Assembly (NCBI GenBank): GCA_040768745.1
Contig: JAXGMI010000001.1
Location: 1,824,001-1,888,000, forward strand
Source of the DNA: Desulfomicrobium sp.
GTDB lineage: Bacteria > Desulfobacterota > Desulfovibrionia > Desulfovibrionales > Desulfomicrobiaceae
Reading direction: 5' to 3'
Length of the DNA stretch: 64,000 bases
The notes below the pieces were generated by a model. That model searched no databases, was not told the origin of the DNA, and saw only the letters and a list, made by a program, of their open reading frames with translations. This document shows, piece by piece, positions 1 to 11,168 of the stretch; positions within the stretch are counted from its first letter, which is position 1, and each line of letters begins with the position of its first letter. A program made the position numbers and the translations under genes.

Positions 1-798
1 GTATGGTTTCAGAGCGTCAAAGTAAGCACGGGGAACCATGAAGGTGTCTCTGAAATCAATCTCGCGAGTTTCTTTTACGATGTTACCGATGGTGATGAAC
101 GGAACGCCTGTCGGAGATTTAGGCGGCGGTAAATGGTCGCCGTCCGTGATGTCTGTTGCCAAGTCCGCAAGCGTAACTGGTTCTCCTGTTTGCCATTGGT
201 CCGCAAAGACGGATTGGAGATGGCTTTCGAAGAGGGCGCGGGCGTTTTGGAGATTCTTTTCGGCGTTGGCTTTGGCGGTGGCGAGGCCCGCAAATGCTTC
301 GTCGAGAATGGCGACGATCCGCTGCTGTTCGGGGAGCGGAGGGACGGGAATATCGACACTTTGAAGTTTTTGAATCGTCAGAGTATCGACCGTTGCGCCA
401 TTGCCTCGGTCGAGTTGGTCAAAGAAGGAAGGCGACTTCAGCCATAAATTGACGAACTCGCTGCTTACCTCGGCGGCTCGCTTCATCCAGAGAACGCTCG
501 CGTCCTTGAAGTAAAACTTGTCGCTGCTTCGGACAACATGTGAGTTCCCGATTGTTCCAATCGCGGTGATGACAATGTCGCCCGCTTGAGGAACGCCGTA
601 TTTTTTCGATAGCTCGGCAAAGTGCTTCTCTGAGATGAAAAGCTCGTTGTTTACGAAACCGTCGGCTGCCAGTCGCGTCACTTCGCGCCCACGGTAGAAG
701 GGAACGCCCTCAGTCTTCCATTGGGATTTCAGAACGCGTTTGCTTGAGCCAATCTGGTAGAGATCGCTCAGCTTTTTTTTGGGCCACCCCTTCTTCAT
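1..798 (-). CDS. hsdS: Type I restriction-modification specificity subunit (5' part; runs off left edge)
   Basis: Hand translation from ATG 798: MKKGWPKKKLSDLYQIGSSKRV...GDIVITAIGTIG...IPVPPLPEQQRIVAILDEAF...DITDGDHLPP. Open to position 1; typical TRD plus the conserved PPLxEQQRIV spacer. Not in the ORF track because its stop is outside the window. Confidence 0.93.
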   Translation of the reverse strand, partial: MKKGWPKKKLSDLYQIGSSKRVLKSQWKTEGVPFYRGREVTRLAADGFVNNELFISEKHFAELSKKYGVPQAGDIVITAIGTIGNSHVVRSSDKFYFKDASVLWMKRAAEVSSEFVNLWLKSPSFFDQLDRGNGATVDTLTIQKLQSVDIPVPPLPEQQRIVAILDEAFAGLATAKANAEKNLQNARALFESHLQSVFADQWQTGEPVTLADLATDITDGDHLPPPKSPTGVPFITIGNIVKETREIDFRDTFMVPRAYFDALKPY

Positions 799-896
799 AG
801 CAGAGCCTTGATGTTGCTCAATACTACCGTGTTTTCGGCAGGATGACAGATGGAAATCATGGAAAGTATGTGATTGAAGTGCGTCATAGGCATCAT
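795..896 (-). CDS. 33-aa linker mini-ORF ending in an hsdM-like tail (possible translational coupler)
   Basis: MMPMTHFNHILSMISICHPAENTVVLSNIKALL*. Its ATG overlaps the upstream stop (ATGA) and its stop overlaps the hsdS ATG (ATGA). Confidence 0.45.
   Translation of the reverse strand: MMPMTHFNHILSMISICHPAENTVVLSNIKALL
850..876. repeat. Degenerate 9-bp tandem array downstream of the four-helix-bundle gene
   Basis: + strand ATGGAAATC ATGGAAAGT ATGTGATTG. Confidence 0.6.
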
Positions 897-1585
897 TTCT
901 TGTGTTGCTGGTTGCGGTGCGCGAGCCGCGCCTGGAACATCCGTTCGCGGAGGCCGCCTTGTTCCAGGAAATCTGTTTCCAACCGACGCAGTTGCTGGTC
1001 GAGCAGGTAGTTGGTCTGGTGAATCAGGCAGATGGCAATGTTGGCGATGACCTCGGGCGGTCGGGTTTCCACATACTCACGGTAAAGTTCAAAGGTATGT
1101 GGGGTCTTGCGGCCGAGGCGGCGGACAAATTGCGCTTCCTTGGAGTCCTTGTCCCAAATGACGTGGTCGCGCACGCGAAGATAGTCGCGGTAATCGGCGA
1201 GCAGCTCTTCGAGACTGGCCCGCCCGACATTGGTCAGCTTGATCTCGGATTCCTTGGAGGTGAGCCCGGCTTTGCTGCCTTCAAGGATGTTCTGCTTGCC
1301 GGAGCGCGCGGCCTGGATCATCTGGTCCACGGTGCGGTCGCCCTTGCCGAGGTACTTGTGGGCGAAGCGGTGCGTGATGTCGTAGATGACTTCGGCTTTC
1401 TGAAAAGAGAGCAGGGTTTGGTAATCGCCGCGCGGGGGGATGATGGGATGGGCGTCGGGCGAAGGTGGCTGAGAATGGGAGATATGGGAATTATGGGAGC
1501 CAGGGGAAATATGATTATCGGCATTTCCATGTTTTTCATTCTGCCCATCATTCCCATGCTTCCCATATTTCTCATCAGTATTCAT
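893..1585 (-). CDS. Four-helix-bundle protein with suffix domain (23S rRNA IVP/Avd-like; TIGR02436 + TIGR04258-like)
   Basis: GDYQTLLSFQKAEVIYD...RTVDQMIQAARSGKQNILEGS...KLTNVGRASLEELLADYRDYLR...NIAICLIHQTNYLLDQQLRRLETDFLEQGGLRERM; low-complexity repeat-encoded N-terminus. Confidence 0.88.
   Translation of the reverse strand: MNTDEKYGKHGNDGQNEKHGNADNHISPGSHNSHISHSQPPSPDAHPIIPPRGDYQTLLSFQKAEVIYDITHRFAHKYLGKGDRTVDQMIQAARSGKQNILEGSKAGLTSKESEIKLTNVGRASLEELLADYRDYLRVRDHVIWDKDSKEAQFVRRLGRKTPHTFELYREYVETRPPEVIANIAICLIHQTNYLLDQQLRRLETDFLEQGGLRERMFQARLAHRNQQHKK
1475..1575. repeat. Palindromic 9-bp periodic array (five units facing six inverted units)
   Basis: + strand ATGGGAGAT ATGGGAATT ATGGGAGCC AGGGGAAAT ATGATTATC (1475-1519). 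Minus-strand ATG-units start at 1575, 1566, 1557, 1548, 1539 and 1530. Confidence 0.85.
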
Positions 1586-3036
1586 AGCAGTTCCCGGATA
1601 GTGGCCAGCACCTTTGCGCTCTCAGCATCCAGCGCCGCGATTTCGTCCATGATTTCCTGTGGGCTGCGGTGTTTCACCTCTTCGCCGTTGTTCGGGTTCT
1701 TGGCCGAAAGGTCAAAGCTCGTCCGATCTATGCCGGTAACATCCACACTCCAGCTTTTGGGCGAGTCGGCCTTGGTTTTTTGCAGCTCCACGAACTCGGC
1801 CAGATCGGCGTCGTTCAAGGCCGTGGTCTTGCCCAAACTGCGGCCGGGGTCGAGTTGATAGAACCAGACCTTGCGAGTGGGCCGGCCTTTTTCGAAAAAG
1901 AGGACCACGGTCTTCACGCCAGCACCCTGGAAGGTGCCGCCTGGACAATCGAGGACCGTATGCAGGTCGCAGCTTTCCAGCAGCATTTTGCGCAACGACA
2001 CTGAAGCATTGTCCGAGTTGGACAGGAACGTGTTCTTGATGACCACGGCCGCCCGGCCCCCGGCTCTCAGCATCTTGATGAAGTGCTGCAGGAAGAGGAA
2101 GGCCGTCTCGCCGGAACGGATGGGGAAGTTCTGCTGGACCTCTTTGCGCTCCTTGCCGCCGAAGGGCGGGTTGGCCAGGATCACGTCGAAGCGGTCCTTG
2201 TCCTGGATGTCGGCCAGGTTTTCGCTCAGGGTGTTGGTGTGGACGATGTTCGGGGCCTCGATGCCATGCAGGATCATGTTCATGATGGCGATGACATAGG
2301 CCAGGGACTTCTTTTCCTTTCCGTAGAAGGTGCGTTCCTGGAGGGTCTTCAGGTCGTCCGTGGTCAGGTCCGGCTTGGCCGTGAGATAGGTGAAGGATTC
2401 GCACAGGAAGCCGGCCGAACCGCAGGCGCCGTCATAGATGCGCTCGCCGATCCTGGGCTGCGTAACCTGGATCATGGCCCGGATGAGCGGGCGCGGCGTG
2501 TAATATTCCCCGCCGTTGCGGCCCGCGTTGCCCATGCGCTTGATCTTCTCTTCGTACAGGGCCGAGAGTTCGTGCTTTTCGCTCTGGGAACCGAAACGCA
2601 GTTCGTCCACGTGGTCGATGATGTCGCGCAGGGTGTAGCCGCTGCGGATCTTGTTTTTGATCTCGCCGAAAATCTCGCCGATCTTGTATTCGATGGTGTC
2701 CGGCCCGGTGGCCCGCTGCTTGAATCCGTGCAGGTAGGGGAAGAGCTTGCGGTCCACGAAGTCGACCAGATCATCCCCGGTCATGGCCTTGTTGTGGTCC
2801 AACTTGCCGCCGCCGTTCTTGGGCGCGGCCCACGCCTCCCAGCGGTAGGGCGCATCAAGGATGAACGAATACTCCCGCCCTTCCAGGGCCGCTTCCGTGG
2901 CCTTGTCCTGCTCCAGCGCATCGAGATATTTGAGAAAGAGCAGCCACGAGGTCTGCTCCGTGTAGTCGAGTTCCGTCGTGCAGCCGCTCTCTTTCCAAAG
3001 CGCGTCGTCGATATTCCTGAATGCTTGTTCGAACAT
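1582..3036 (-). CDS. hsdM: Type I R-M N6-adenine DNA methyltransferase subunit
   Basis: MFEQAFRNIDD start; GEYYTPR, DGACGSAGFL (SAM-binding) and ANPPF (catalytic) motifs. Confidence 0.95.
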   Translation of the reverse strand: MFEQAFRNIDDALWKESGCTTELDYTEQTSWLLFLKYLDALEQDKATEAALEGREYSFILDAPYRWEAWAAPKNGGGKLDHNKAMTGDDLVDFVDRKLFPYLHGFKQRATGPDTIEYKIGEIFGEIKNKIRSGYTLRDIIDHVDELRFGSQSEKHELSALYEEKIKRMGNAGRNGGEYYTPRPLIRAMIQVTQPRIGERIYDGACGSAGFLCESFTYLTAKPDLTTDDLKTLQERTFYGKEKKSLAYVIAIMNMILHGIEAPNIVHTNTLSENLADIQDKDRFDVILANPPFGGKERKEVQQNFPIRSGETAFLFLQHFIKMLRAGGRAAVVIKNTFLSNSDNASVSLRKMLLESCDLHTVLDCPGGTFQGAGVKTVVLFFEKGRPTRKVWFYQLDPGRSLGKTTALNDADLAEFVELQKTKADSPKSWSVDVTGIDRTSFDLSAKNPNNGEEVKHRSPQEIMDEIAALDAESAKVLATIRELL

Positions 3037-3259
3037 GGCGTTTCTAAGGGTTGGCCAGCGCATAGCGGCCAGTGGGCAATGGTTTGGAATCAGAAAACCA
3101 GGTGTTTTTCTAGGTTACAACAGCCGGAGCAGACAAGGCCAATTTTGCAGCCGTGGCCCGGCGGCGGGTTCGGGGTGTTAAAAGAGCAAAAAATTTCTTT
3201 TTGCAAAAAAAATATGAGTATGTTATTTAATAACCATGAAAAACTGTTAAAACGCCGCG

Positions 3260-4351
3260 TCAGGCACAGGCCTGCATCGGCTGAACATTGGGTCGAAGTA
3301 TGTGCCCAAGGAATTTGAGATACAAAAAACACAGAACCCGGATGAACTTCCGGAAATTGAACGCGGCACAGGCCATGAACAGATTCACGGCGTCGCCGAC
3401 CTGGCCTTTGAGGTAATTGCGCAGCATCCTGTGGTCGTTCTTGAGGTGGCCGATGATCGGTTCGATGGCCGCACGCCGACGGAACCGTTCCCTGGCTTGC
3501 CGTTTGTCAGAAGCTGTTTTCGTCCGCTTGCCTGACTCGGGAATTTCGATGCTGGTCACGCCGACCTTGCGCTTGCCGCGGTATCCTCGGTCGCAGATCG
3601 CCATGGTCGGCCGTTGCCCCACGATGCTTTCGACTTGAGACAGAACCGCAGGCAGCGTGTGCCCGTCGAAAGGATTGTCCTGGAAGGACAAGGCGCCAAC
3701 GATGATGCCGCTGGTCTTGGTCACGGTCACGGAGGCTTTGGCGCCGAACTCGTACTTCTTGTGAGCCTTGCCTTTGCTGATGCAGGACACTCCGGGTTCG
3801 TGGAGGCTGTAGATCTTGCCGGTGTCGGATCGCTGCTCTGGCTGCATTCCGGTCTTCTTCCACAGTTCGACCGAGCAGCGGGGCAACTGGGCATCCAGGT
3901 CAGTTTCCAAGGCGATCCGCTGAAACCGTTGCCGCAAAATCTCGGCGGAAGGAACGCGTCCAAGGCCAAGGCTGGTCGCGAAGAAATCGTCGCCGTAGTA
4001 CTCACGAACATGGTCGAAATCCGTTTTGCCTTGGCACATGAGGCCGACCAATGTGCGGAAAATTTCGCGCTCCTTGATCTGCGGAGCTTTTCCAGGCCCA
4101 AGACGATCGACCAGTGTATCCAGACCGCAAACCCTGGCCATCTCGCTAATCAGGGCCAGGCCGACATGACCAATGTTGTTTCCTTCGTTTCGCTTGATAT
4201 CGGTGATGAGCATTGCAAACTCCTGTCGCACCCAATGGGTGCAAAAACTCATTCAGGAAAAGCAAACCCAATATACCGGTATCATTGATTTATTTCAAGT
4301 ACAAAATGTTTCAAAACTCTATATTCAATGCAACTTTTTCACGGATTTAGG
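3260..4351 (-). mobile_element. Chimeric IS remnant: IS1380-family 5' half fused in frame to IS5-family 3' half (ORF 3260-4213)
   Basis: N-terminal GHVGLALI...GKTDFDHVRE...GRVPSAEILRQR is IS1380-like; C-terminal KIYSLHEP..CISKGKAHKKYEFG..CDRGYRG..RRRAAIEPIIGHLK is IS5-like. Candidate left end CCTAAATCCGTGAAA at 4351; right end not identified. Confidence 0.8.
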
Positions 4352-5442: not shown

Positions 5443-5465
5443 AATTGAACAGAGAGGGTATTTGT

Positions 5466-8423
5466 ATGGCATTTTCAGACATCGAGGCAAAGACAACGAT
5501 CACTGGATTCACCGATGATCAGAAAACTTCAATCCTTGCAGACTTAAAAAAGGCGTATGAAGGTTCTGAAATAGCCAAAAAAATGTTCGATGATTGGATC
5601 GCAACAGCAGGACACACCATAGATATAAAGTATGTTGCTGGAAAATATCAGGCTTGGACTTCAACAGGACGGGTTGAAATAGATCCAGCATATTTATCAG
5701 ATGCGAGTTATATAAACGATAAAGGAACACCGATATTGGATTCACAGTTAACTGCTCTTACTCACGAACTTGGTCATGCGTTGACAGGAAGACGTGACAA
5801 CATAAGTGCTGTTGACTATCAAGGTGATAATGTCAGATACGTCAATACGATCTGGAATCAACTTGGATTGGAGAAGCAAATATCTTACGTAGCATACGCA
5901 AGAAATACTATTCATAAAGTCGGATATACATATACCAATGGTGCAGCCATAGATGCTGCCCGTTCCGGCGACATAGATATGAGTTTAACCGCGCTTAATG
6001 TATCGAACGATCTGTTGATTGGCGGCCCTTCCGCCAACATACTCCAGTCTGGCGGCGGGAACGACTTTCTTTTCGGAGCGGGGGGGGATGACCGATTGCT
6101 GGGTGGTGCCGGTACTGACACGGCAGTCTATTTCGGTTCACCGCTGGACTACGACATCCGGTTGACTGCGGATGGTACGTGGTCCGTCAAAAACGTGCGT
6201 GGTGCCAAGGATGCCGGTTTGGATATCTTGAAAAACATTGAAAAGGTGCAGTTTGACGCCACTGGCGGCGGCCACATTGCCTACGAGCTCAAAAAAGGCG
6301 GGCTTTCCTACCAAACCGATTTCGCCCTGGTCATAGATAGATCGGGGAGTATGGGTGATGATATAGATTCCGTGAAGGCGGTCTCTACCAGTCTTGTGAA
6401 TGCAGCATTCGGCGACGGGACGAAGGATGCCCGCATTGGCGCTGTCACATTCTCCGATACCGAATACGGTGAACCGACCAATGTGGTCCTTCAGTTCACA
6501 GACCAGGATGATTTTGCGGAAAGAAAGAGTGCCGCGATTGCCGCCATTAATGGCATTGGGCTGGATTGGGGTGGGGATGAGCCGGAAGTGGCTTTTGACG
6601 GCCTTCTTAAGGCGCTGGATGGGAGTATGGGCGAATGGAGGGCCGGCGCTGGCATCAAGCGTATTGCTCTGTTCACTGATGCGCCCGCTAAGGACAGTTC
6701 CCTTGCAGATCAGGTGACGGCACTTGCTCACAACATCGGGTTTTCAGTCGGATCTCGCTCAACTCTCTCGGGTGTTGGTGGTTCGGTCGACACCTTTAGC
6801 CTTACGTTCGAGGGTGACAGTTCGCTTCCTGCGGCTCGTGCTTTCCCAGATGACCCTGAAGCTGATGAGCTGCCCCCTTTTGAAATGACAGAAGAAGCCG
6901 TCGATCCTGATCCGACCACGACGCAAGTTCAGATATTCACGATAGTTACTGGAACTCCATACTGGGACACTTATGCATTTGAATCGATCTCGAGCGGCAA
7001 TGCTGGTCAGTTTCTGAGCGCTCCGGATAACGATACACTGGTAGATCTGCTTTTTGACATCGTCGAAGGCAAGGTTCCAGGGAACAATCCGCCGACAGAC
7101 ATGACCCTCTCCGCCAATGTGATTGCCGAGAATGCGGTCCTGGGACAGATTGTCGGCAGTCTCTCAACAACTGACGCGGACGCAGGGGAGACGTTCGTCT
7201 ATTCGTTGATCAATAATTCGGAACAGTTGTTCGGAGTCAACGGAGTGGACCTGGTTGTATCGGGAGCGTTGGACTTCGAGGCCGCCTCTTCGCATGACAT
7301 CACGGTGCAGGTAACGGATTCTGGAGGCAATGCGTACGTCAAGACGTTCACTGTCGACGTGACCAACATTGTTGGTGTTACCATAGCCGGCACAGACACT
7401 ACAGATGTGATTGATGCGGTTCATACAATTCTGGGTCAGCCGCTACCAACCGGTGAGGAGGATGCGATCACGGGTCTGGGCGGCGATGACTTCATCAGCG
7501 GCCTGGGCGGCAACGATACAATCGACGGTGGCTCAGGAAACGACACGCTCAAAGGCGGAACCGGCAACGACATGGTGGCCGGTGGAACCGGGAATGACAT
7601 TTTTATCTATCAATCTGGGAATGACACGCTCAATGGTGGAGCGGGCCAGGACACGGCAGTCCTGCCCATGTTCCCCGACGTGTATTCCCTGGTCCAGGAG
7701 GCTCCGGGGAGAATCAGGGGGACCTACGCGGATTACACCCTGACCCTGGAGGATGTGGAGTTCGTCCAGTTCGGGACATATTTCCAGACCACCCTTGCTG
7801 TGGGCGACCTGGCCTCGGGTCAGGCCAAGCTGCAGCTTGGCCGTCTGACGGATCTCTACCTGGCCTTCTTTGGCCGGGCACCCGATGTATCCGGTCTGGA
7901 ATACTGGCAGGAACGGCTGATGGAGGAGGGGCGGGATTTCGCCACGATCTCCAAGGACTTCGCGTGGAGCGATGAGGCCCAGCGTCTTTTCCCGCGGGAC
8001 GCCAGCAACCGGGAGTTCGTGCAGGCCATTTACCAGAACTGCTTTGACCGCGATCCGGACACGGGCGGATGGGACTACTGGACCCAGCGGTTGGATGCCT
8101 TGGGTTCGACGGATCTGAACGATCGCGGGTCCTTTGTGGGCGAGCTGATTCTGGGGGCGTACGCCGTGACGAGCGGAGAGGAGGATCGCGGCCTGCTGAC
8201 CCACAAGCACGAAGTGGCGATGCACTATGTGAACAGGTTGTCGGAGCAGCCGGAGGAGGAATTCGACGCCAGCATCAACGACCTGCTGGAGCTGGTCACC
8301 GGGGACTCGGGAACGCAGTCCAAAGCTGAGGCGGTCATCGACCATGTGTTCGAGGACCCGATCACCCTGACCGGGGTGATGAATGACCCGGCCCTGCTGG
8401 AGTCCATCTGGAGTGCTGCGTGA
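5466..8423 (+). CDS. Secreted multidomain protein: HExxH metallopeptidase-like + RTX Ca-binding repeats + VWA + cadherin + RTX + DUF4214-like C-terminus
   Basis: THELGHAL; GGGNDFLFGAGGDDRLLGGAGTD; VIDRSGSM (MIDAS); NNPPTD..ENA..TDAD..LDFE (cadherin); GLGGDD/GGSGND nonapeptides; LYLAFFGRAPDVSGLEYW and RDPDTGGWDYW. Confidence 0.88.
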   Translation: MAFSDIEAKTTITGFTDDQKTSILADLKKAYEGSEIAKKMFDDWIATAGHTIDIKYVAGKYQAWTSTGRVEIDPAYLSDASYINDKGTPILDSQLTALTHELGHALTGRRDNISAVDYQGDNVRYVNTIWNQLGLEKQISYVAYARNTIHKVGYTYTNGAAIDAARSGDIDMSLTALNVSNDLLIGGPSANILQSGGGNDFLFGAGGDDRLLGGAGTDTAVYFGSPLDYDIRLTADGTWSVKNVRGAKDAGLDILKNIEKVQFDATGGGHIAYELKKGGLSYQTDFALVIDRSGSMGDDIDSVKAVSTSLVNAAFGDGTKDARIGAVTFSDTEYGEPTNVVLQFTDQDDFAERKSAAIAAINGIGLDWGGDEPEVAFDGLLKALDGSMGEWRAGAGIKRIALFTDAPAKDSSLADQVTALAHNIGFSVGSRSTLSGVGGSVDTFSLTFEGDSSLPAARAFPDDPEADELPPFEMTEEAVDPDPTTTQVQIFTIVTGTPYWDTYAFESISSGNAGQFLSAPDNDTLVDLLFDIVEGKVPGNNPPTDMTLSANVIAENAVLGQIVGSLSTTDADAGETFVYSLINNSEQLFGVNGVDLVVSGALDFEAASSHDITVQVTDSGGNAYVKTFTVDVTNIVGVTIAGTDTTDVIDAVHTILGQPLPTGEEDAITGLGGDDFISGLGGNDTIDGGSGNDTLKGGTGNDMVAGGTGNDIFIYQSGNDTLNGGAGQDTAVLPMFPDVYSLVQEAPGRIRGTYADYTLTLEDVEFVQFGTYFQTTLAVGDLASGQAKLQLGRLTDLYLAFFGRAPDVSGLEYWQERLMEEGRDFATISKDFAWSDEAQRLFPRDASNREFVQAIYQNCFDRDPDTGGWDYWTQRLDALGSTDLNDRGSFVGELILGAYAVTSGEEDRGLLTHKHEVAMHYVNRLSEQPEEEFDASINDLLELVTGDSGTQSKAEAVIDHVFEDPITLTGVMNDPALLESIWSAA

Positions 8424-9292: not shown

Positions 9293-11168
9293 CCCAAGTT
9301 TGACAGCAATATCGAGCTTATTTGTTTAAAATTAGGATATTATCGCTTCGGCGCTAGTTGGAGTTTACACTACATTTCCTTTTTCTCCACGGGTCGGGAT
9401 CGGCGGGACTCCCAGAGCACGCAGGATCTTTTTCTGCGCGTCCGTGGGGCGACTAGGAGTCATCAGCGTCTCCTCTCCGACCATGATCTCCCCCATCTTG
9501 ATCTGACGCAGAAGGCGGATGGCTGTCGGCACAGACACTGCCATTCCTTTGAGCTTGTTGCGCATCCAGCGCTCTAACTGCAATGCGATCACGCAGACAA
9601 ACACATGTGCCCTGATTCGCTCCTCAGTCCAGTGATACACAGGGCGTAGTTCCAAGGTGCTTTTGAGCGCTCTCCATCCCCGTTCAATTTCAGCAAGCTC
9701 TTTGTAATGTTTGATAATGTCTGCGCATGGTGCATCCATGTCGGTTGTTTCGAGAAGCAAGACGCCATCGATCTTTTCCTCCCAAGCCCTGCGTTTCCTG
9801 TGGGCCTTGACGATGACCTGATCCTGAGTGAGCGCAACTTGGAACAATGAGAGCAAGCCCTTGTCACGCAGGTAATCCCTGATGCGGTCGTATTGACCCT
9901 GTGGGCTTGGTTTGCGTCCCTTGCCTGACCTTGGGGCGAGTATTTCCCGGATCTTGGCATCGGCCTTGGCAAGGCGCTCCTGGCGGTTCGCCTTGGTTTC
10001 GGCTGCGATCTTCGGAGAATAGGCCATAACGAACCGGACCCCGCTGCGAACTTCCTCGACAATCTCCTCGTCCTGCCCATTAAACGAGATCTTAAGACGC
10101 AACGCCTCGATCACGCTCCGCGCCTCCTCTCCACGACGCAATGGATGCGCCACGATGAAGCCGAATTCCTCGGCCAGCAACGTCTCGAGATTTTGGTCCG
10201 AGAGCATTCCCCTGTCCCCGACAAACACCACGCTGCGTAGCTTGAAGCGAGTCTTCAGATCCTTCACCACCTCAACCACAGTGGTCTTATCCACGGTGTT
10301 CCCCGGAAAGACATGGTGGCAAAGCGGTATGCCGTCCTTGCCCATGACCACGCCGATGGTGATTTGGCGCCGATCAAACCGGCCATCGCGACTGTATCCG
10401 AAGCGCCGAATGTCATCCTCCACCAACGATCGATCCCCGTCGAACCATGTGGAAGTGATGTCATAGAAGAGCAGGTCGCCTTCCCAATGCGCCTTGGGCA
10501 TGAAGCGCTTGGCTATCAAGGGCTCCAAAGCTTCCTTCGCATCCAGCAATCTATCCATGGCGCGCAGGAGATGGTGATAGGCCGGGCGGTGTTGCTCAAA
10601 TCCAGAAAGCCAGACGCCATCGAGCCAATCCAGTAGCGCCAGTTTGGAGCACGGATCGCAGAGTCGATTGACGATCAGCAACTTGATCAGTTCAGCATAA
10701 TCCATCCCGGCCCCGGTCTTTACTCCTGCACGGGCCAGGGCTTTGGAGAGTCCCAGGATTTCCCAGAGATGTTTGACCGCGTGAACATGTCCGAAATCAC
10801 GTGCAAACGTGAGGAGCGGCGGTCCAGTCTGAACCGGGTCTCGACCGAGAGCTTTCTGGAAGCCAGCGATGAGTCTCTCGACCTGGTCTTCGCCCAAACT
10901 CTCGATAGTGCCGAGATGAGCCAGGATGCGTGTGCGCGGAGATCCGCCTTTCTCGGGATCACGGAAAGATTCCGCGATCTGAAGATGGCGGTAGACTTTG
11001 TCGCCTCGTTTCTGCTTGGCTATTCGTACAAACATAAACTACGAGTAGCATTATTATTCATGAATAGCAATGTTTATGTCTATTTTGTACGTACTACAAA
11101 TTGGGCATTAAAAAACAATATAAGTCATAACTTCGAGGTGTTAGCCTCAGGCCGCTGTCAAACTTGGG
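9293..11168 (-). mobile_element. IS1634-family insertion sequence, 1876 bp
   Basis: 15-bp perfect terminal IRs CCCAAGTTTGACAGC (9293-9307) and GCTGTCAAACTTGGG (11154-11168); 6-bp target duplication GTGCCG (9287-9292, 11169-11174). Confidence 0.93.
9365..11035 (-). CDS. IS1634-family DDE transposase
   Basis: FYDITSTWF, GYSRDGR, VGDRGM, IERGWRALKS, LRPVYHW..RIRAHVFVC motifs. Confidence 0.92.
   Translation of the reverse strand: MFVRIAKQKRGDKVYRHLQIAESFRDPEKGGSPRTRILAHLGTIESLGEDQVERLIAGFQKALGRDPVQTGPPLLTFARDFGHVHAVKHLWEILGLSKALARAGVKTGAGMDYAELIKLLIVNRLCDPCSKLALLDWLDGVWLSGFEQHRPAYHHLLRAMDRLLDAKEALEPLIAKRFMPKAHWEGDLLFYDITSTWFDGDRSLVEDDIRRFGYSRDGRFDRRQITIGVVMGKDGIPLCHHVFPGNTVDKTTVVEVVKDLKTRFKLRSVVFVGDRGMLSDQNLETLLAEEFGFIVAHPLRRGEEARSVIEALRLKISFNGQDEEIVEEVRSGVRFVMAYSPKIAAETKANRQERLAKADAKIREILAPRSGKGRKPSPQGQYDRIRDYLRDKGLLSLFQVALTQDQVIVKAHRKRRAWEEKIDGVLLLETTDMDAPCADIIKHYKELAEIERGWRALKSTLELRPVYHWTEERIRAHVFVCVIALQLERWMRNKLKGMAVSVPTAIRLLRQIKMGEIMVGEETLMTPSRPTDAQKKILRALGVPPIPTRGEKGNVV

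Follow-up and report, generated by a model that had tools for sequence, protein, structure and literature searches.

According to sections of PMC10053308, members of the protein family PF05635 lie within 23S rRNA intervening sequences and are homologous to the DGR accessory protein Avd. Sections of PMC3936711 likewise place the family in 23S rRNA intervening sequences, and also inside cas loci. A four-helix-bundle gene (FHB) between hsdM and hsdS of a Desulfomicrobium sp. encodes a relative of these 23S rRNA IVP proteins. Its product passed both NCBIfam cut-offs for the group (TIGR02436, 25.4 bits against 24; TIGR04258, 82.7 bits against 40). A predicted model (pLDDT 88) best matched Xcc0516 (2GSC; Z 14.6, rmsd 1.8, 110 aligned), which ranked first among 48,161 chains, and BT_0352 (2RLD; Z 13.1). 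The modelled fold also appears to be shared with Avd (8UB7, Z 12.0, rmsd 3.5, 115 aligned; 4DWL, Z 11.5), consistent with the 23S-IVP/Avd-like fold that a first-pass annotation of this DNA had assigned. Foldseek returned an E value of 0.18 at best, and a sequence search of the PDB gave no matches. Unlike the 23S rRNA IVP proteins, FHB resides in an mRNA operon rather than in rRNA, scores below the Pfam gathering threshold (PF05635, 21.4 versus 33.8), and both adds a helical insertion with a suffix domain and comes with 9-nt arrays. The locus differs from DGRs in that no reverse transcriptase was found among FHB neighbours or in the host genome (no PF00078 match; 99.99% complete).

Insertions with long target duplications, as outlined in parts of Furuta et al. 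2010 (PMC2853133), combine variable direct repeats of >30 bp over stop/start sites with empty sites and the absence of a mobility gene. The same combination occurs here, with a copy of ~46 bp at the filled junction and a single tail in the congener G005 and 52 other alleles. In the examples given there, it is the R-M genes that were inserted, between nearly identical repeats (e.g. 44/46). Here, an accessory gene enters an R-M operon, and the repeats are alike at 20/30 positions, with the right copy resembling other alleles. FHB is embedded between hsd genes, and embedded genes of type I R-M operons ('guilt-by-embedding', 10.1101/2024.01.29.577857; PrrC) are described in the available portion of that work as optional cargo with many types per junction, as we observe; the available main text makes no mention of 'helix bundle', '23S', 'IVP', or 'recombination'. 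SPDIR, in the accessible part of 10.1101/2023.11.22.568220, yields replacement insertions at microhomologies without target duplication. This resembles one stand-alone FHB locus (L044, below), although SPDIR is described there for microindels, compared with ~800 bp here, and L044 may reflect operon decay. In the literature searched, which covered few subscription papers, neither the gene-plus-9-mer unit nor hsdM tail copies were described in any paper we found. The junction anatomy and its empty sites are new here.

Organization of the hsdM-hsdS junction

The window, a 64,000-nt stretch of the Desulfomicrobium genome, contains the junction at its left end (Table 1). The operon belongs to the EcoAI/FtnUII family, as assigned by hsdR to the left of the window (NF046051, 803.8 bits; cut-off 550), and hsdM probably starts at the ATG at 3036. 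The first-pass annotation had proposed that translation runs from hsdM through FHB and a 33-aa mini-ORF into hsdS by way of three ATGA overlaps; all of these ORFs and overlaps are present. The insert encodes only FHB and the 33-aa ORF, which has no family, and thus carries neither transposase nor reverse transcriptase, as had been stated. A scan for promoters and terminators gave signals at chance level.

Table 1. Features of the hsdM-hsdS junction (positions in the window)
Feature	Position	Strand	Annotation
hsdM, type I methyltransferase	1582-3036	minus	Pfam N6_Mtase + HsdM_N; PADLOC MTase_I 6e-164
hsdM 3' tail: purine-rich leader and ATGA overlap starting FHB	1582-1641	minus	
FHB (four-helix-bundle gene), 230 aa	893-1585	minus	array-encoded N-terminal extension + 182-aa core with suffix domain
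Six ATGRRA-type units of 9-nt period, in frame in FHB (forward arm of the 5' array)	1522-1575	minus	
TCCCAT-type units predicted to form a hairpin with the forward arm (reverse arm of the 5' array)	1475-1514	minus	
3' array: three degenerate reverse-type units, non-palindromic as an array	850-873	minus	
Bridging mini-ORF, 33 aa, from FHB stop to hsdS start; comprises 3' array and tail copy	795-896	minus	
Diverged hsdM 3' tail copy; gives hsdS its leader and stop/start overlap	795-840	minus	
hsdS 5' part, start 798, 401 aa in total, runs on left of the window	1-798	minus	Pfam Methylase_S

An identical 10-mer, CTGCTATGAA, sits at both boundaries (1581-1590 and 794-803), as had been reported. It was ruled out as a target-site duplication: the 10-mer occurs four times in the 3.09-Mb genome and forms the conserved terminus of something longer. 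What is duplicated is ~46 bp of the hsdM 3' end, in diverged form.

Palindromic arrays had been claimed for both flanks of the gene, and the claim holds for the 5' side. The 5' array is inverted, with a 9-nt period, inside the FHB reading frame; its 40-nt arms are 73% complementary, and its predicted fold of -35.1 kcal/mol (z -2.1) was equalled by 5 of 200 shuffles. The 3' array consists of one-way units whose folding is no better than chance (z -0.4). Recurrence of inverted arrays with homologues, a prediction of the first-pass annotation, was evident: arrays lie upstream of FHB at 62/78 loci and downstream at 46/78, versus 6/1062 control windows. The polarity of the 5' array, forward then reverse, is fixed in 59/75. 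Rfam returned nothing at gathering score, only sub-threshold hairpin matches. Outside DGRs, the arrays provide an Avd-like protein with a candidate ligand.

FHB is an optional occupant of the junction

If FHB is an insertion, as the first-pass annotation held, relatives should include empty sites, and they do. The congener G005 (hsdM 95% identical) carries a direct hsdM-ATGA-hsdS junction, the very arrangement that deleting the DNA between the two 10-mers recreates, while the congeners G007 and G019 are filled. These filled and empty congener alleles form a ready test pair. Among 80 metagenomic hsdM relatives, 52 have hsdM directly joined to hsdS, five carry FHB (one as a fragment), and 23 carry other inserts, including HEPN/MNT, GIY-YIG, DUF1016, KilA-N, and Bro-N. 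With FHB in 5/80 and other DNA in 23/80, the junction is therefore a general hot spot.

Filled alleles are scattered across both gene trees. On the hsdM tree (which includes L032 as a frameshifted long branch and excludes L055), FHB presence requires 16 changes, at least six of them forced by starred branches. On the FHB tree, hsdM-linked copies do not cluster (19 changes versus 20.9 when shuffled; 87/500 shuffles as low). As read from these phylogenies, FHB is repeatedly gained or lost at the junction. A second class of FHB genes, which have a start of their own, occupies the same site in L067, L082, L084, L090, and L111, a preference for which chance alone does not account.

The tail copy derives from other alleles

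A profile built from 48 empty-site hsdM tails retrieved the true hsdM tail (42.3 bits) and the copy ahead of hsdS (34.2 bits) as the top two matches in the genome, with the third at 16.1. A shared origin of both repeats from the same target was not borne out, as the copy's 20/30 identity to its own hsdM tail is no higher than that of the median empty allele, versus up to 25/30 for other alleles. Indeed, 22 of the 48 empty tails resemble the copy more closely than the own hsdM tail does. The best empty tail outscored the own tail in 11/11 usable filled loci, with L055 set aside for its frameshifted hsdM. Judged by these alignments, the tail copy is derived from another allele and not from its own hsdM.

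Between G000 and G007, the copy is less conserved (27/36 identical) than FHB (507/548) or the adjoining array (55/62), and hsdS differs. Tail-copy boundaries vary among filled loci. Each stacked cassette is preceded by a tail (L022, L055, and L074); those of L055 carry 74-bp near-perfect repeats, and near-identical flanking repeats occur in L055 only. Tail copies accompany 11/19 FHB inserts versus 1/13 other inserts. The last hsdM codons tend to travel along with FHB: Ala at position -3 is found in 29/50 empty tails versus 3/24 tails preceding FHB.

Translational coupling across the insert

The FHB stop is ATGA in 18/21 hsdM-linked loci versus 15/60 elsewhere, and translation is uninterrupted through 12/15 spacers versus 5.2 expected; as the loci share ancestry, Fisher values for such count comparisons overstate. 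From these counts, stop/start coupling looks to be under selection, and the spare hsdM tail copy likely maintains hsdS translation. The proposal of a non-polar insertion thus looks sound for the hsdMS operon. Filled alleles with a broken coupling chain also occur (L046, L067, and L074). The broader idea of an element built for entering operons in general did not hold up. Host-tail duplications and ATGA overlaps had been expected to recur at unrelated loci; duplicated tails were found at 0/62 non-hsdM FHB loci, where the highest local scores (26-38) came from GC-rich sequence or from the arrays and L042 lacked the length needed for the test, and ATGA stops showed the low frequency given above. 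Moreover, non-FHB cargoes at the junction are likewise joined by stop/start overlaps.

Stand-alone FHB loci

While 31/80 FHB loci are tied to EcoAI-family R-M, 62/80 homologues do not adjoin hsdM. At 13 of these 62 loci we found hsdM-tail scraps or decayed restriction genes. Specifically, 9/57 stand-alone FHB starts scored >=8 bits on an hsdM-tail profile (control starts, 1/3248 and 0/1228), and restriction-gene remnants lie <=3 kb from FHB at 9/62. As stand-alone loci were picked for having FHB, this evidence for stranding carries survivor bias. A restriction-operon trace is absent at 49/62, so hitch-hiking does not account for all of them. No mobility enzymes were present among 113 ORFs neighbouring FHB, 53 of which had no family and were in part wrong-strand picks. 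Viral contigs gave one match.

Three 41-genome searches for stand-alone empty sites yielded one usable pair, L044/G075; no empty site for L041 was found in its 41-genome search. In L044 the cassette stands in place of ~55 bp of its empty relative, with 8-bp microhomology and no target duplication. L044 also contains a KilA-N scrap, a type found at hsdM junctions, so this locus can be a decayed operon. The L060 site in G113 carries an apparent hsdR end, judged by eye from the sequence.

A model for movement of FHB

We favour, with a probability of roughly 0.6, a model in which FHB is an optional Avd-like gene with its own arrays at the EcoAI-family hsdM-hsdS junction, moved by recombination at hsdM tails and carried across phyla as a hitch-hiker on the operon. 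Host recombination acting on the hsdM tail likely underlies gain, loss, and stacking of FHB, whose cross-phylum spread is likely due to passage with the operon, not to a jumping enzyme of its own. Donor DNA would recombine within hsdM and rejoin at a variable point 20-60 bp ahead of the recipient hsdM stop, resulting in the order donor tail, FHB, array, recipient tail, hsdS. The 3' array would displace hsdS from the FHB stop, so that the alleles to persist, with HsdS expressed, would mainly be those having both a tail copy and an open bridging frame. The tail copy could then provide the homology arm through which hsdS is exchanged and cassettes are deleted or stacked. Decay of the operon would strand FHB, with a tail scrap serving as its leader. 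The FHB protein would probably form an Avd-like ring that binds the repeat hairpin, in RNA or single-stranded DNA form. Such a model would explain at the sequence level how type I R-M operons can gain and lose cargo without hsdS being silenced. It would also offer a large, function-less family a possible transposase-free route across phyla: ride a promiscuous restriction operon and get left behind. Passive transport does not account for the conservation of the arrays or for that of the protein, which is very high (mean column identity 80%). The second FHB class at this junction, the three filled alleles with a broken coupling chain, and the lack of a recombined form among contigs of eight sequencing runs also weigh against the model.

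A selfish, transposase-free element is an alternative we regard as improbable, though the foremost of those considered. Here, an FHB oligomer would bind its own hairpin arrays and insert an ssDNA or cDNA copy at gene-junction microhomologies, with the chemistry supplied by the host or by enzymes in trans. The captured hsdM tail would serve as leader and homology arm, allowing the element to home into empty hsdM-hsdS junctions with hsdS unsilenced, and the junction would become a cassette array that needs no integrase, every cargo being primed by a tail copy. The accompanying arrays and their fixed polarity, the predicted match to Avd, 69-91% identity of FHB homologues over many phyla, the replacement-type insertion at L044, and the excess of tail copies with FHB over other cargo are all consistent with this. 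However, the host has a single FHB copy and no reverse transcriptase, cassette ends are not fixed, and L044 is open to the reading of operon decay. The insertions are also old, being common to several species (the hsdM site to three genomes, the glnA site to six or seven). A conventional transposon does not fit, given the variable boundaries, the single genomic copy, and the absence of a transposase and of duplication at L044.

Somewhat less probable still, FHB could be an accessory defence or toxin-like gene that benefits the host, its arrays acting as regulatory RNA. Defence genes are often found inside type I R-M operons (according to the available portion of 10.1101/2024.01.29.577857), toxin-antitoxin and nuclease cargo occupies this same junction, and the ties of FHB to EcoAI-family R-M and of its family to cas loci (sections of PMC3936711) agree with such a role. 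On the other hand, FHB matched no PADLOC model, structural comparison revealed no catalytic fold, several copies (L068, L073, L075, L108, and L218) have suffered frameshifts or deletions, and the neighbours of stand-alone copies are mainly housekeeping genes.

It is very unlikely that FHB acts as an RNA-level intervening sequence, excised from the hsdMS message by RNase III-type processing following base-pairing between the 3' array and the 5' forward arm. Residence of family members in 23S rRNA intervening sequences (sections of PMC10053308 and PMC3936711) lends this some appeal. A terminal stem bracketing the FHB ORF is also possible: 850-865 can pair with 1524-1539, and a duplex of the 3' array with the 5' forward arm is predicted at -28.0 kcal/mol, but this long-range duplex competes with a stronger local hairpin (-34.6 kcal/mol). 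Processing of rRNA intervening sequences entails excision without ligation. In the hsdMS message, such excision would uncouple hsdS, whereas continuous translation through the insert appears to be selected, which argues that the insert stays in the message. Two RNA-library contigs (431-922 and 803-1018) span the 3' junction unaltered, weak evidence against the excision proposed in the first-pass annotation given possible DNA carry-over, and none of the RNA-library contigs contains a joint skipping the insert. Eight sequencing runs gave no excised or recombined form among assembled contigs, from which rare forms drop out. Short internal joints in those runs are likely from other organisms.

In one study a second strain diverges from the window at 848, beside the tail copy; its sequence past this point matched none of 249 loci, and its match to the host genome was no better than chance. 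This divergence, together with the three filled congeners, in which the first hsdS domain differs and follows a tail copy that changes fast, would suit a module dedicated to tuning or swapping restriction specificity, as had been suggested, but we consider this highly doubtful, with no recombinase present, most homologues away from hsdM, and hsdS starts equally variable in the 52/80 alleles that are empty of FHB.

Anatomy of the hsdM-hsdS junction

Re-reading of the sequence bore out the open reading frames, three ATGA overlaps and both 10-mers described in the first-pass annotation. The host operon runs hsdM, a four-helix-bundle (FHB) gene, a mini-ORF, hsdS, a 326-aa gene weakly matching Fic/Doc, and an hsdR of the EcoAI/FtnUII family. 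The boundary 10-mer, which occurs four times in the host genome, is the end of a ~46-bp diverged copy of the hsdM 3′ end (the tail copy). When a profile built from 48 empty-site hsdM tails was scanned across this genome, the copy was the second-best match (34.2 bits), after the true hsdM tail (42.3) and before the next (16.1). Of the palindromic arrays claimed on both flanks, the 5′ array is inverted, with a 9-nt period within the FHB frame (folding z −2.1), but the 3′ array consists of three units in a single orientation (folding z −0.4); their pairing with the 5′ forward arm would be possible.

Coordinates of the junction, its surroundings and compared loci
Sequence	Position	Strand	Feature
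Window	795-840		Tail copy
Window	795-896	−	Mini-ORF, 33 aa
Window	from 798	−	hsdS
Window	850-873		3′ array
Window	893-1585	−	FHB gene, 230 aa
Window	1475-1575		5′ array
Window	1582-3036	−	hsdM
Window	3237-4252		IS5-like insertion
Window	3260-4252		IS5-like transposase gene, directly upstream of hsdM
Window	5445-8423		Large protein near operon: RTX-type calcium-binding repeats, VWA, cadherin, DUF4214 domains
Window	9365-11035		IS1634 transposase, near operon
L055	2288-3900		Stacked DUF1016 and FHB cassettes, in that order, between 74-bp near-identical tail repeats
L046	1158-1480		Short 7-nt-period repeats directly before tail copy
G000 (host), C1	976558-976600		Two remaining ends of paralogous FHB gene

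Contigs of three runs diverge from the window at 3237-3259, beside the transposase gene, so the IS5-like insertion is probably polymorphic between strains.

Empty and filled junctions

Insertion into a direct hsdM-hsdS join had been proposed, and empty alleles exist. Among 60 relatives searched, three congeners carried hsdM at 93-96%; the junction is empty in G005, and G007 and G019 have the host's cassette with a different hsdS. In G007, hsdS codon 5 is TGA, a position at which relatives encode Trp; this filled allele may therefore lack activity or reinitiate further on. Within the 80 best metagenomic hsdM loci, 52 join hsdS directly (37 recognized by start motif, 15 by Pfam) and five hold FHB, which in one of them is a fragment. 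Other DNA fills the remaining 23, some of whose contigs end before hsdS could be seen: HEPN/MNT pairs, GIY-YIG with hairpins, DUF1016, KilA-N, Bro-N or non-coding repeats; given this variety, the junction is a general hot spot for inserts. REP-like hairpins follow hsdM at L102, L122, L130, L179 and L214, mostly with a GIY-YIG gene, and a non-coding palindromic repeat at the L126/L128 junction is translatable as a coupling ORF.

Origin of the tail copy

A tail copy accompanied 11 of 19 FHB inserts versus 1 of 13 inserts of other kinds for which an hsdS start could be seen; the rows counted lack independence, and in a few the start was wrongly picked. Its 5′ boundary was not constant among loci, and in stacked cassettes (L022, L055, L074) a tail precedes each. 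Tail copies were closer to other alleles than to their own hsdM tail; between host and G007 the copy was identical at 27/36 positions and its neighbours at 507/548 and 55/62. Ala stood at −3 in 3 of 24 tails preceding FHB versus 29 of 50 empty tails, making the FHB-preceding tail distinctive. Together these patterns fit a left tail from the donor and a right tail from the recipient. A second strain (two runs, one study) diverges from the window at 848, beside the tail copy.

At L055 a 9-mer array has become part of the hsdS frame, at its start. The 7-nt-period repeats at L046, also found after FHB at L075, suggest a relic of another repeat-flanked cassette.

Translational coupling

ATGA overlaps, expected at homologs, held at hsdM-linked loci, where the FHB stop is ATGA in 18 of 21, and were less common elsewhere (15 of 60). 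Translation continued without a break into the following gene in 12 of 15 spacers versus 5.2 expected from shuffled, length-shifted spacers; the 15 exclude four broken genes, three loci whose stop was out of view, three where no following gene was identified and three direct overlaps. For EcoKI, hsdM-hsdS coupling has been described (PMC3510504). A filter may operate in which the 3′ array would displace hsdS, so that alleles combining a tail copy with an open bridge would be the main ones to persist.

FHB genes across genomes

A genome scan confirmed at least 537 FHB relatives; the best 80, retained for analysis, share 69-91% identity across many phyla, and 18 sit after this hsdM type. Viral contigs gave one match. 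Period-9 arrays lay upstream in 62 and downstream in 46 of 78 FHB loci, versus 6 of 1062 control windows. On quick trees with many forks open, the hsdM-linked label was not clustered among FHB genes (19 changes; shuffle mean 20.9; 86 rows), and the FHB label required 16 changes among hsdM genes, at least six forced (98 rows).

Duplicated host-gene tails had been predicted at unrelated loci; none appeared at the 62 non-hsdM loci. An hsdM-like leader preceded 9 of 57 scoreable FHB starts there, versus 1/3248 and 0/1228 control starts, and remnants of hsdM, hsdS or hsdR lay near 9 of 62 (13 of 62 with either or both). Of ten genomes checked in connection with these loci, six carry the same hsdM type elsewhere. 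In one filled/empty pair off hsdM (L044/G075), ~55 bp are replaced with 8-bp microhomology, and L044 has a KilA-N scrap in common with hsdM-linked L046; this reflects either export or in-place decay of an operon.

Congeners carry further, older FHB insertions at fixed sites, one following a glnA-like gene. The paralog reduced to its ends in the host is intact in congeners (L209, L210), which indicates loss through internal deletion, not precise excision.

Nature of the insert

The insert is real and optional, and appears non-polar in this operon. We favor a passenger moved by host recombination (probability roughly 0.6). The closest published mechanism, insertion with long target duplication (PMC2853133), likewise spans start/stop sites; there, however, the repeats are near-identical and the R-M genes themselves are inserted. 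The literature searched yielded nothing on a gene-plus-9-mer unit or hsdM-tail copies.

A selfish element driven by its own protein is unlikely. No transposase, integrase or RT family occurred near FHB loci among 113 of 114 listed neighbor ORFs (53 without a family), nor any RT in the host genome. The protein passed TIGR02436 narrowly and TIGR04258 clearly. Its predicted structure (60 homologues; pLDDT 88) matched, within the top five rows, Xcc0516 (Z 14.6, rmsd 1.8), BT_0352 (Z 13.1), Avd (Z 12.0 and 11.5) and an unrelated helical bundle (Z 11.9); PMC10053308 describes the family as Avd-like.

Somewhat less probable still is an embedded defence gene. Genes embedded in type I operons are already known from 10.1101/2024.01.29.577857, whose supplements may include this family, and PMC3936711 and PMC10910872 place it within cas loci; no PADLOC model matched the protein. 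Highly improbable are a specificity module and RNA-level excision; as weak evidence against the latter, joints skipping the insert were absent from all assembled contigs of eight runs, and two RNA-library contigs (431-922 and 803-1018) retain the 3′ junction.

At 651-652, in the first hsdS domain, the window reads TT and six runs read CC; an RNA run of the likely source study agrees with the window.
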